The translations under genes and the position numbers were made by a program. The notes beneath the pieces were generated by a model. The model saw nothing but the letters and a program-made list of their open reading frames with translations, searched no databases and had not been told where the DNA came from. Below are positions 37,814 to 59,972 of a DNA stretch of 64,000 nucleotides, piece by piece. The stretch is from Eledone cirrhosa (Eukaryota), in contig OZ024740.1 in assembly GCA_964016885.1 (NCBI GenBank), positions 382,354,001-382,418,000 on the forward strand, given 5' to 3'. The first letter of the stretch is position 1; each line of letters starts with the position of its first letter.

Positions 37814-38100
37814 TAAGCAAAGGGATATTTAATTTGTTGGTAATTCAACAGATATATTTATAATAGATTCGAAGCACTCGATAGGTTTTCTGGAGTACAA
37901 TATCAATGATATTAATAAATGGAAACTATATTTATAAAACCATATTTATTCTATTATATTCAAGGGCACCAAAACTTTGGTACGCCATCATCAGATAAAA
38001 TACAAAGTTTGTTTTATAAATAGTGACATACCCAGGAATCAGACATTAACGTTTCAAGTTCCGTCTGGAACTTGAACCGTTAAGGTCTGATTCCTGGTTA
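37814..38100. mobile_element. Fold-back HHR element, right arm truncated; same family as 58962-59355
   Basis: Left arm aligns by eye with 58962-59180. Hairpin centre ccaggaatcagacattaacgtttcaagttcc-gtct-ggaacttgaaccgttaaggtctgattcctgg. Decayed minus-strand HHR at 37949-38000. Confidence 0.8.
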
Positions 38101-38109
38101 CCAGTCATC

Positions 38110-38640
38110 ACTGGCATAATATATTCGTTAAACAGATTTCTTTTGGTTTCTGTTGTTGCGGTGGGACCGCTAATGATGTTATACACTTTTGCAAAGGTCG
38201 CCCAGCCAAGAACCTTCTATTGCAATCTTCTTTTTGTGGTACACATAGCTATCTACTTTGTTGCCATTTAAATAACTGCTGATAGTTTTACTGGGCCGAT
38301 AAAGATGTATGTTAAGGCCTACATGTTAGCTCACAATGTGGATAATATTGAGCATTTTCTCTAATTCCTGTGGTGTATGGGCAATTGCGAGGACGTCATT
38401 TGCGATGTCTAAGTGGCATAGGATTTCACCACCTATGTTCATACTCTAGAAAACACCTTGTAAATGGTGGGTAGGAGGCTGATTTTGCAGAAGTTTCTGA
38501 GGTCATCTTTACCACCTTTCTTTTGAATTCGCTATTTCAGTATTATTCTAGCTGTCAGGAACACAGCCTTCATCTAAACACCTGTAGTGCATTTTGGTGA
38601 AGAACATCTAAAGCTGGGAGAGCCCTTAATCTAAGGGACG
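38110..38640 (-). mobile_element. Degenerate RTE-type RT fragment
   Basis: Minus strand HLDIANDVLAIAHTPQELEKMLNIIHIVS*HVGLNI resembles the FADD..VGL.IN RT motif. Confidence 0.55.
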
Positions 38641-40077
38641 AGTTCTCTTATACAGACATTTATTACTCTAAGGATATTTTAGTTACAGATATTTCTTAGT
38701 CTGGCCCCGTAACATCAGCCTATATTGATACAATAAACTCTTTTGTATAGAATTTCTTACTACATTTATTTATTGATTAATCTACTAGATCTTCATATTG
38801 CTTCGTGCTTCAATCAGTTCTCAATTAATTTTCGTCTTTCAGCATCTTCATCGTTTTGTACTGTCTGGTAAATACGTCTTGTAAAAATAAGCGTATATGT
38901 TATAAGTAAATACGGTTTCATTTACTTATCATGTTAAACGTTATAGCTTATTTGTATTCCACATTTCTTTGGTTAAATAGATATGGTTCCCTAGCTTATG
39001 TGCAACCAAACCCGTGTAACTGTCCTTCTACATCAGAAAGTATGCAGAAATATGTTTTTCATTCTTTTCAACAAGTGATGTCAATGTACAGCAAAATCAT
39101 ATTCAGGAAGGTCTGCTGATTTCTATTTCTATAGATCCCACGATACTTTTATTCAAGGATACATATATTGCATTTTAAATTTCGAAATAAGAAAGCTAAA
39201 CCTATCACCGAGGAGAAAAGCGAAAACTGACATAGGTAGAATTAGGTCTACTCTACCGGTTTCTTTTAGAAAAGCAGTACATACCCTGCAAAGGCTTTTC
39301 ACAGTCTAGACAGCGCCTGGCGTAATAATATTAAACTTAACTTTTCACTGAATGGAAGCCTCTCGAAAAAAAAACCCCTCAAAATTGGTTTGGGTTAAAA
39401 ATGCCATCCTATATTGATCTGGTCTATTCAACATATGCATTTATAAAAATAGTAAATTTAAAGACCTGAGAAATGAAATATTTGCAATTAAATATGCCAA
39501 TACACTTTTGTTCACACCATCAGGTATTGTAGAGCCTACTTTAATATATATTAAATTGACCAGCACGTATACGTCCTTTACTTAATAGGTAATTTTCAAT
39601 ATTATATATATATATATGTAAATATGAGAGAGATAGAGAGAGAGAAAGAGAGAGACCGAGAGAGAGGGGCAGAAAGAGAGGAGCAAAGGGATATATATAT
39701 ATATATATAGAGAGAGAGAGAGAAAGAGAGGGAGAGAGCGAAAATGAGAGAGAGAGGCGAAACACGGAACGCGGCACCAAAACCTTCGGCGGCGAGTTCG
39801 GAATTTTATCAAACCCTATACCAACTCTGCATTTATCCTTTAACCTGATCTCTCCTGGATCACCACCGCGGGCTCATTCTTTCTCTCTCTCTCTTTCCCT
39901 CTCTCTCTCTCTCTCTCTCTCTCTCTCTCTCTCTCTATATATATATATATATATATATATATATATATATATATATATATAGTAAAAAATTGAACGGGTA
40001 CAAACAGAGAGGCAGTACGAACAAAGGTTTATTAGTTTCACGCTCTTGAGAGTATATATATATATATATATGTATAT

Positions 40078-40536
40078 CGCGTGCATTAATGTTTTCCAGG
40101 ACACAGTGTTATGTACCGTGTAGTGGAATGTCAGCTTACAACAGAGTGGTGCTCAACGAAATGCAGAAAAAAGGTGTATATTCCAGTTTAGCTATATTCC
40201 GGGGCGTGTATAAAGAATTAAAAAGAACAGAAAGATGCAGTAAAAGAGATTTATTCGGTTCTTACGTACGTTTCAATAGACATCAAGTTGCCTAGATCTC
40301 GCTACATCTATAATATTATATATTTAGTAGAGCATTCGATATCCAATGCACAATCGATCCCATATCATTATCTCTGATGATATGGGATCGATTGTGCATT
40401 GGATATCGAATGCTCTACTAAATATATAATATTATAGATGTAGCGAGATCTAGGCAAATTGATGTCTATTGAAACGTACGTAAGAACCGAATAAATCTCT
40501 TTTACTGCATCTTTCTGTTCTTTTTAATTCTTTATA
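40078..40536. mobile_element. Near-perfect fold-back element in (TA)n with a candidate long-stem-II hammerhead
   Basis: Arms 40209-40370 and 40375-40536 with a 4-nt loop (tctc); the left side has ~130 bp extra. Plus strand: tct CTGATGA tatggg...tctatt GAAA cgtacg TA aga (40371-40485). Confidence 0.8.
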
Positions 40537-40612
40537 TATATATATATATATATATATATATATATATATGATGAAGAACACAAGAGCGTCTACAACATCA
40601 AAAGATTTTTAT

Positions 40613-40661
40613 TGGCTTACAATGTTTCTTCCTTACGTAACCGTAGGATTCGTCAGAGCTA
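40613..40661 (-). ncRNA. Minimal type I hammerhead ribozyme at the 3' end of a PLE-like UTR (40570-41340)
   Basis: rc: tagct CTGACGA atcctacg-gtta-cgtaaggaa GAAA cattg TA agcca, then aataaa and (TA)n. Confidence 0.72.
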
Positions 40662-58390: not shown

Positions 58391-58592
58391 TGTATATAAA
58401 TATATATATATATATATATATATATATATATATATATATATATATATATATATATATATATATATGTATATATATATGCTTGTCGATTGATTTTCATCAA
58501 ATCGGACCGAGGAAACAATGTTTTTGTTGGTCTTTCCAATTGCTAATGCCATCTATCGGTTTCAATCCCAGGTAGAATATATATATATATTT

Positions 58593-58910
58593 GAAGGCGC
58601 GTGGTCGTGTGGTTACTGTACTCGGCTCATCATAATAAGGTGCGTTGTGACCTTCAGCAAGTCAATTCATTTCACGCTGATCCAGTCCACTCAGTTGGCA
58701 AAACTGAATTGTAACTGTAATTCGGAGGGCCAGCTTTGTCACAGTCTGTTTCACGCTGAATCTCCCTGAGAATTACGTTAAAGTTACGCATGCCTGTGGA
58801 ATGTTCAGCCACTTGCAGGTTAATTTCACGAGTAGGCACTTCCGTTGATAGTATCAACTGGAACACTCGTCTTCGTAACCGACGGAGAGGACTCCATTTA
58901 TATGCGTGTG
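58593..58910 (+). mobile_element. tRNA-derived SINE (degenerate head)
   Basis: ggcgcgtggtcgtgtgg head; gcgttgtgaccttcagcaagtc..tttcacg block shared with the 26870 SINE. Confidence 0.6.
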
Positions 58911-59100
58911 TGTTTAAATATATATATATATATATATATATATATATATATATATATATATAAGCAGAAGGGATACTCAATTTGTTGGTAATTCAACAAA
59001 TATAAATGTTTATAACTGGTTCAGAGCACTCAACAGTTTCTGGAGTATATTATACAATGATATTAAATAAATGGAAAATATATTTATAAAACCATATTTA

Positions 59101-59157
59101 TTCTATTATATATATTTCAAGGTTACCAAAATGTTGGTACGTTATCATCAGATAAAA
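59101..59157 (-). ncRNA. Type I hammerhead ribozyme
   Basis: rc: ttttat CTGATGA taacgtaccaa..ttggtaacctt GAAA tatata TA atagaa. Confidence 0.65.
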
Positions 59158-59250
59158 TACGAAGTGTCTTTTATAAATTTCCTTGGAAAACTTGAACCGT
59201 TAAGGTATATTCTCCTTGGTTATGTCAACATTTATAAAACACTCTTCGTA

Positions 59251-59307
59251 TTTTATCTGATGATAGCGTACCAAAATGTTGGTACCCTTGAAATATATAT
59301 CATAGAA
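59251..59307 (+). ncRNA. Type I hammerhead ribozyme
   Basis: ttttat CTGATGA tag-c-gtaccaa-aatg-ttggtac-c-ctt GAAA tatata TC atagaa. Confidence 0.75.
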
Positions 59308-59972
59308 TAAATATGGTTTTATAAATATAGTTTACATTTATTTAATATCATTGTATATATATATATATATATATATATATATATATATATATATATATAT
59401 ATATTAATTGGAAAGGGTTGAAGCGATTAGTGTACATGAATATTCGTAAAGTTTGAGTATTTCGTGCGAAAGGTAGCTGTAAACAGCCGAATACTATTTG
59501 CATAATAAACCTTTTTTTTTTTGTAGTTAAGGGTTAACCACCAATCGAAGGGAGATTCGTGGTTATATCTTAACCCCCAAACCCACCCACCCCGCACTAA
59601 AATGTTTGCTATGCAAATAGTATACAGCTGGTAAAGGCTACATTTTGCGCTGCGAATACTCAACTTTTACGAATATATATATATAAATATATTTATAATT
59701 GGATGCTTAGTAAAATCGAATCTCTGGCGGTGTGCAAGCAAATTCTACCTACTATATGAATGAGTTAGCAAAGCACTCGACAAGGTAGGTCCTTAGAGTA
59801 ATAACATACGTTTAAATAGCTTGACAAATTGAACATTGTGGTAGGCAAAAATCTAACAGACAATACCAAAATAACGAAAGAACTAACAGGTTGAGAAAAA
59901 ATACACCTGGACAAATCAAACGTTATACGTTTAAAATGTTTCTATGAATCCAAAATCAAATATCATACTCAC

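Follow-up and report, generated by a model that had tools for sequence, protein, structure and literature searches.

Head-to-head repeats with a shared hairpin tip in Eledone cirrhosa, probable solo pseudo-LTR remnants of a Penelope-like element

In the part of the published account available to us, among the Penelope-like elements (PLEs) of Adineta vaga (Pen2a, Pen2, and Pen3a) there are an inverted pseudo-long terminal repeat (pseudo-LTR) 37 bp shorter than the direct ones and an optional tail on one end, pseudo-LTRs begin with palindromes of 18 bp or 38 bp and also occur solo, and the authors inferred self-priming from palindromes at the head-to-head junctions (PMC3846280). Excerpts of a broader account present inverted 5'-truncated copies, one-sided tails, and targeting of (TA)n as general in PLEs and assign CxCX5C and DKT motifs and hammerheads to the PLEs of the Hydra clade (PMC8557442). 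For an anole PLE studied in vitro, the accessible text reports that both strands are cut and extended and that two RNA start sites of reverse transcription bound, and hence explain, the tail (PMC11167929). Going by these same portions, the origin of the head-to-head 5' structures of PLEs is still open (PMC8557442 and PMC11167929), and tandem retrozymes have been argued, in a source likewise seen in part, to be PLE derivatives (bioRxiv 10.64898/2026.07.22.740005). Here we analyze a window of 64,000 nucleotides from Eledone cirrhosa (assembly GCA_964016885.1, contig OZ024740.1, positions 382,354,001 to 382,418,000), in which an earlier note, made from the letters alone, had singled out two fold-back copies with a common inversion point. 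The window contains four related copies, A to D (Table 1), and we consider it probable that they are noncoding solo pseudo-LTR remnants of one PLE family, with the long palindrome rebuilt at each insertion at a fixed 5' end.

Copies A and B were 84% identical over 227 nt (E value of 1.6e-61). Their start motifs lay within 1 nt of where the earlier note had placed them, A opening with aagcaaaggga at 37815 and B with aagcagaaggga at 58962, and both copies carry the minus-strand hammerhead core that it had reported (CTGATGA at 37994 and 59151). The second arms, which the note had put at about 38066 and 59186, begin with ggaacttgaaccgttaaggt at 38067 in A and with ggaaaacttgaaccgttaaggt at 59185 in B, and each is preceded by ttcc and a loop of 4 nt in A and 2 nt in B, so that one hairpin tip, TTCC-loop-GGAA, is common to the two copies. 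A and B agree in this tip and in where the second arm starts, but not in symmetry; the inversion point claimed for them is indeed the same, but A, with a right arm of about 34 nt, is no long fold-back. The note had also given copy C, which it placed at 51991, a different centre. In the alignment, the C axis proved homologous in position to that of A, about 6 nt away, with different short repeats (TTCC/GGAA in A and AAGCTT in C) at nearly the same position. The distance from ribozyme core to tip was 70.5 nt in A and 32.5 and 73.5 nt in B. With tips placed uniformly over 250 or 100 nt, the chance of A and B falling within 1 nt of each other would be 0.012 to 0.03 and that of all three falling within 7 nt would be 0.003 to 0.016, both values coming from a post hoc test. 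They support a fold position that is nonrandom, as the note had argued, and fixed for the family, and because C shares it, the case is better than the note itself held. The A tip hairpin folded as DNA at -30.7 kcal/mol, which none of 200 shuffles equaled, and the B tip alone was not a stable hairpin (z = 0.89). Six pairwise 2-kb comparisons of the flanks of A, B, and C gave a single match, of 38 nt on the opposite strand in a (TA)n/(TG)n repeat at 36181-36218. The flanks are thus unrelated, as had been reported, and the segmental duplication with homologous flanks that the note had named as fatal to its proposal does not fit them. An old imperfect inverted repeat (59440-59676) begins just to the right of the TA tract of B.

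Table 1. Coordinates of the repeat copies and of the comparators within the window (dot, no strand given)
Feature	Position	Strand	Description
Copy A, long arm	37815..38062	-	Solo pseudo-LTR-like; ~90-nt 3' tail; ends in short TA run 37808-37814
Copy A, hammerhead-type motif	37947..38002	-	CTGATGA at 37994; 5-nt deletion shortens stem III
Copy A, tip hairpin	38029..38100	.	34-bp stem with 3 mismatches; gtct loop 38063-38066
Copy A, short right arm	38067-38100		About 34 nt
Decayed LINE fragments, presumably RTE type	38103..38594	-	Abut short arm of A; flank, outside the element
Copy B, left arm	58962..59178	-	Tail 58962-~59054 plus ribozyme, core 59151; lacks 41 nt beside the tip
Copy B, tip	59179..59188	.	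ttcc-tt-ggaa, homologous to ttcc-gtct-ggaa of A
Copy B, right arm	59185..59353	+	Reaches the tip; ribozyme core 59257; no tail; ends in (TA)n
Copy C	51992..52337	.	Symmetric 94% palindrome; axis 52164/52165 (aag|ctt)
Copy C, ribozyme cores	52088, 52241	-, +	No tail; (TA)n at both ends
Copy D	52590..52671	-	82-nt 3'-end fragment; outer end as in C; stops within ribozyme stem II
Comparator G, another family	24590..26588	.	Inverted copy with ~79-nt tail, head-to-head on the end of a PLE endonuclease ORF
G, endonuclease ORF end	25667-25786	+	With its own 3' repeat; both G ends in (TA)n
Comparator hairpin	30376..30400	.	Perfect, 11 bp; at the 5' truncation point of PLE ORF 29169-30374 (-)

A profile built from the five arms and run against the window matched A, both arms of B, both arms of C, and D, with a weak relative at 51828-51903. 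All matches were inverted or isolated, and none formed head-to-tail tandem units. Head-to-head inverted, 5'-truncated neighbor copies are present in B and C; A combines a full left arm with a right arm of 34 nt, and B combines a full right arm with a left arm that is 41 nt short. All six outer ends (one each of A and D and two each of B and C) lie in TA runs, and they fall at two positions, a short one common to B-right, both C arms, and D and another about 90 nt farther out in A and B-left, which carry a tail of that length that the others lack. Any target-site duplication would be masked by the TA repeats. A and B have one outer end in common, which C does not use. Close to the end of the tail, a TGTTG/CAACA stem-loop is kept in A (37815-37865) and B (58962-59005); it loosely resembles the AC-rich stem-loop from which reverse transcription is initiated in the anole PLE. 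An ATG with a GTATGT donor-like site is present in A-left and C and lost in A-right and B-right; no consistent reading frame was found for the A-left and C sites.

These features compare closely with described PLEs. An inverted neighbor, a tail on one end, and an AT-rich or (TA)n target, by which pseudo-LTRs of endonuclease-containing (EN+) PLEs are recognized, were all found. As in the inverted pseudo-LTRs of Adineta, as far as the available part of PMC3846280 describes them, there is a head-to-head repeat with an inverted copy about 40 nt shorter at its 5' end, a tail at one end, a palindrome at the pseudo-LTR 5' end or junction, solo pseudo-LTRs, and AT-rich targets; unlike there, no open reading frame (ORF) is attached, the tail measures about 90 nt instead of 30 to 40 nt, and three copies that are 75 to 88% alike have one tip. 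The (TA)n targeting and the hammerheads also recall the Hydra clade (PMC8557442, excerpts), whose CxCX5C and DKT motifs appear here in ORF remnants for which no sequence link to the family was found. Non-LTR retrozymes, in the portion of the preprint consulted (bioRxiv 10.64898/2026.07.22.740005), are similarly noncoding, with a type I hammerhead and a PLE derivation, but they are head-to-tail tandem arrays with a hammerhead in each unit, whereas A, B, and C are head-to-head pairs or single arms. No comparison of fold positions across copies was found in the accessible parts of the PLE accounts, whose supplements may hold closer examples, and a literature search on PLE snap-back or self-priming and shared fold points found nothing among titles and the beginnings of abstracts.

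Each long arm holds a CTGATGA...GAA motif that points outward from the tip. In an alignment of seven motifs, five from the A/B/C family and two from other families (at 51839 and 44920), the hammerhead fold paired 93.7% of 126 cells, and 9 of 19 stem pairs had changed on both sides. None of 500 shuffles reached the observed pairing and one reached the covariation, while slid controls were 34 to 54% paired; shared ancestry can by itself produce values above such shuffles even where nothing folds, and the two motifs from other families account for some of the covariation. The core was invariant in all seven motifs; a long helix II, interrupted by an internal mismatch, was accompanied by a short palindromic helix III. 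Judged by its letters, the motif would qualify as the type I hammerhead expected of an EN+ PLE pseudo-LTR, and it is like the type I, or minimal, hammerheads of PLEs (PMC4209133, in the part available) in its intact C3-A9 and G12-A14 cores, long mismatched helix II, and short palindromic helix III. The distantly related hammerhead at 51839 (+) lies in 51022-51930, after a long pyrimidine-rich, internally duplicated stretch; this region shares the left TA tract of C and has no fold-back upstream. A well-formed hammerhead-type motif of the same architecture (44911-44973, +) stands between two minus-strand PLE ORF remnants and runs out into (TA)n near 45020. More CTGANGA motifs with a possible stem II followed by GAAA occur at 35819, 56115, and 63978.

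The arms of C were 94% alike and 75 to 81% identical to A and B, and C therefore folded, or was homogenized, separately. The B arms were 90% alike and 87 to 88% identical to A. In the ribozyme and 3' region, polarized on C, B-left and B-right shared two substitutions among 99 gap-free columns and one insertion absent from A and C, while A-left and B-left had no shared characters; a fourth candidate site for the B arms was dropped from a poorly aligned stretch. The tree of this region joined the B arms with support of 78/81. Away from the tip, the arms thus lean toward grouping within copies, which is evidence against movement of the entire hairpin in one piece. Applied to the copies of the window, the arm phylogeny that the earlier note had proposed as a check gave a divided answer: B grouped within itself away from the tip, and the right arms of A and B grouped near it, as detailed below. 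The note's leading proposal, with the hairpin itself as the mobile unit, found no support for the long palindrome on three copies, and its alternative, a programmed fold site, fits better and has its architecture described for PLEs (PMC3846280, in the part available).

Fold-backs of other families provide a comparison. The arms of G were 99% alike over 404 nt, with the inverted arm about 370 nt shorter at the junction, and no CTGANGA core was found in G; a 3' repeat related to it lies at 28268-29170. The hairpin at 30376-30400 contains AAGCTT in its centre, like that of C, and hairpins with arms of at least 10 bp numbered 0 to 2 per 60 kb in five shuffles. It caps a PLE ORF deep inside the coding sequence, so truncation of a copy, at whatever point, can also give rise to a fold-back. 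Each arm of a 96% palindrome of another family (23775-24150) contains a compact motif of hammerhead type, 31.5 nt away from the AAC|GTT axis, a 97.6% head-to-head palindrome (40209-40536) folds 1.5 nt from CTGATGA with no convincing stem II, and a 76% head-to-head palindrome (35176-35508) has CTGATG beside its axis. Fold-backs are therefore common in this region, at positions specific to the family or to the truncation. The layout opposite to that of A, B, and C, short inverted repeats joined tail to tail with a TA run at the centre, was seen at 47602-47661 and 23420-23545.

In the explanation that we hold to be probable, a PLE protein with reverse transcriptase (RT) and GIY-YIG domains would move pseudo-LTR RNAs in trans into (TA)n tracts. 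Reverse transcription would start at one of two 3' sites and run to a family-fixed 5' end that bears a short self-complementary tip; this end may be the 5' terminus of the RNA or else a strong stop located 70 to 77 nt upstream of the ribozyme core. Snap-back pairing of the cDNA end, or its pairing with a second cDNA primed across the cut, would then give a head-to-head repeat. Only the 5' end and the short tip would be inherited, the long palindrome being made anew at each insertion, and the missing 41 nt of B and the short arm of A would reflect truncation at insertion or later deletion. The enzyme, the RNA ends, and the order of events in palindrome formation are what we infer here. The structure appears to be a fresh instance of known PLE anatomy, in which a shared turning point would already have its precedent, and G lends support: it too is tailed on one side only, and its inverted arm, again the shorter one, is joined straight to what is left of a PLE endonuclease.

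Several results weigh against this explanation. Plain snap-back of one cDNA cannot give a tail to the arm that is shorter at its 5' end, as in B and G; two cDNAs with different starts fit better, barring later trimming. By eye, the G10.1-C11.1 pair is missing in all seven motifs, where it is replaced by A-U, G-U, or U-U. Rfam gave no match in the window at the gathering score, and at E values up to 5 it gave 67 matches between 36000 and 60500, none of them a hammerhead and all below the gathering score. With a longer helix I, of up to 8 bp, as a further departure, the motif differs in these points from the PLE type I hammerheads (PMC4209133, as far as available) and does not appear to be a canonical one. 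Within the window no ORF adjoins any copy of A, B, C, or D, the folded copies available are only three, and the tail did not score significantly against one PLE N terminus, 170 and 73 of 600 background windows scoring equally high. In the ribozyme and 3' region, grouping of the two left arms was not rejected by the approximately unbiased (AU) test (P = 0.10). Simulated inheritance of a whole palindrome, which speaks for rebuilding in that it produced the observed pattern in at most 0.0023 of runs, assumed master arms diverged by 2 to 4.5% each and no conversion, and conversion or identical arms escape this test. Near the tip, A-right agreed with B-right at 3 of 31 columns where A-left agreed with C, which pure copying at insertion does not predict.

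These tip sites deserve a closer look. One column grouped A-left with A-right, and the A arms also shared indel states; the near-tip tree joined A-right and B-right with support of 94/93 (AU test, P = 0.06). On the fixed alignment, the chance of the sites under copying at insertion was at most 0.001 for all three and 0.02 for two, but a one-gap register fits C equally well (13/18) and flips the polarity of two of the three, and the third is only 3 nt from the junction with the LINE (long interspersed nuclear element). They give a weak hint, with two sites alignment dependent, that a tip was inherited. A tentative variant, rather unlikely on present evidence, is that the RNA carries an imperfect 5' hairpin of about 34 bp from a palindromic parent locus and that this hairpin fixes where the cDNA pairs back. 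The fold point would then perpetuate itself, with A as the unextended and B as the extended form, and arms would be mosaic, right arms grouping across copies over the first ~34 nt and arms grouping within copies beyond. Such a mosaic is seen, with A-right and B-right together at the three tip sites and B-left and B-right together farther out. Joining of two different template RNAs in one insertion would explain the same sites.

The same sites also favor an unlikely alternative, in which the long palindrome moves in its entirety as a copy of a palindromic master, with conversion between arms hiding left and right ancestry. A and B share the tip and the tailed left end, A-right groups with B-right near the tip, and grouping of the left arms is not rejected in the 3' region; however, three characters unite the arms of B and none unites A-left with B-left, a pattern rare in simulation without conversion. 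Furthermore, A lacks nearly all of its right arm, C differs in its outer ends, and G and the hairpin at 30376 fold at other positions. Grouping of arms within copies and the short inverted repeats at the tips would equally be expected if single arms had been duplicated after insertion by replication template switching at TTCC/GGAA or AAGCTT, a general mechanism at short inverted repeats in the portion of the literature consulted. We regard this as improbable, because in B and C the second arm terminates precisely at a 3' end of the family that D shares, within TA runs and without flanking DNA, because the tip of B does not by itself form a stable hairpin, and because the short repeats of A and C differ although they lie at nearly one position.

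More improbable still is a DNA transposon of the foldback type or a miniature inverted-repeat transposable element (MITE), bounded by long terminal inverted repeats and targeting TA sites. Symmetry together with TA at either flank is seen in C alone; termini are not identical in all copies, the two ends of B differing by about 90 nt, A has a single long arm, and D is truncated at its 5' end. A ribozyme motif whose stems covary is present in the arms. Retrotransposition typically leaves 3' ends constant and 5' ends variable. The copies do lie within 22 kb, in a region rich in palindromes and TA runs, as an old local segmental duplication or a fold-back artefact of reads or assembly would have it, but the flanks are unrelated and the arms are 90 to 94% identical with indels, unlike chimeric reads, and we give this origin very little credence.

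The surrounding DNA is AT rich and eukaryote-like, with a GC content of 0.26 to 0.40 per 2 kb, dense (TA)n and (CA)n, and decayed LINE fragments. At least three minus-strand stretches (29169-30374, 42765-44533, and 45772-47059) are homologous to PLE RT-endonuclease protein, and among five fragments of PLE ORF remnants the CxCX5C linker was found in two and DKT in one. Comparisons within the window found no sequence link between these ORFs and the A/B/C family. Pfam, which recognized almost none of these ORFs, gave one GIY-YIG match, below the cutoff, among 10 window ORF proteins and none among four in a second set. The LINE beside A, which we take from its motifs to be of RTE type, was considered as running on into the short arm, a reading not accepted since it added few score points after a gap; A as an interruption of one LINE was also set aside, as the flanks are not collinear. 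The match of the downstream LINE part to the left flank of A was equaled by 134 of 1,000 shuffles with a long relative and by 13 to 576 of 1,000 with four short ones, and an upstream RT segment, picked post hoc, matched it weakly (5 of 1,000 shuffles as good). A homologue search with one LINE fragment gave no match, and a tRNA search found none. One dispersed repeat, presumably a tRNA-derived SINE (short interspersed nuclear element), occurs in five copies (21374-21567, 48739-48899, 61444-61597, 61780-61970, and 62816-62924).

As an object, the structure is an expected by-product of PLEs. With its fixed tip, its pair of 3' ends, and sites that tell the arms apart, this small and probably abundant noncoding family is handy test material, and a genome-wide comparison, arm by arm, could separate snap-back, the joining of two cDNAs, and copying of the whole unit. 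For annotation, such palindromes may be mislabelled as MITEs or microRNA hairpins.

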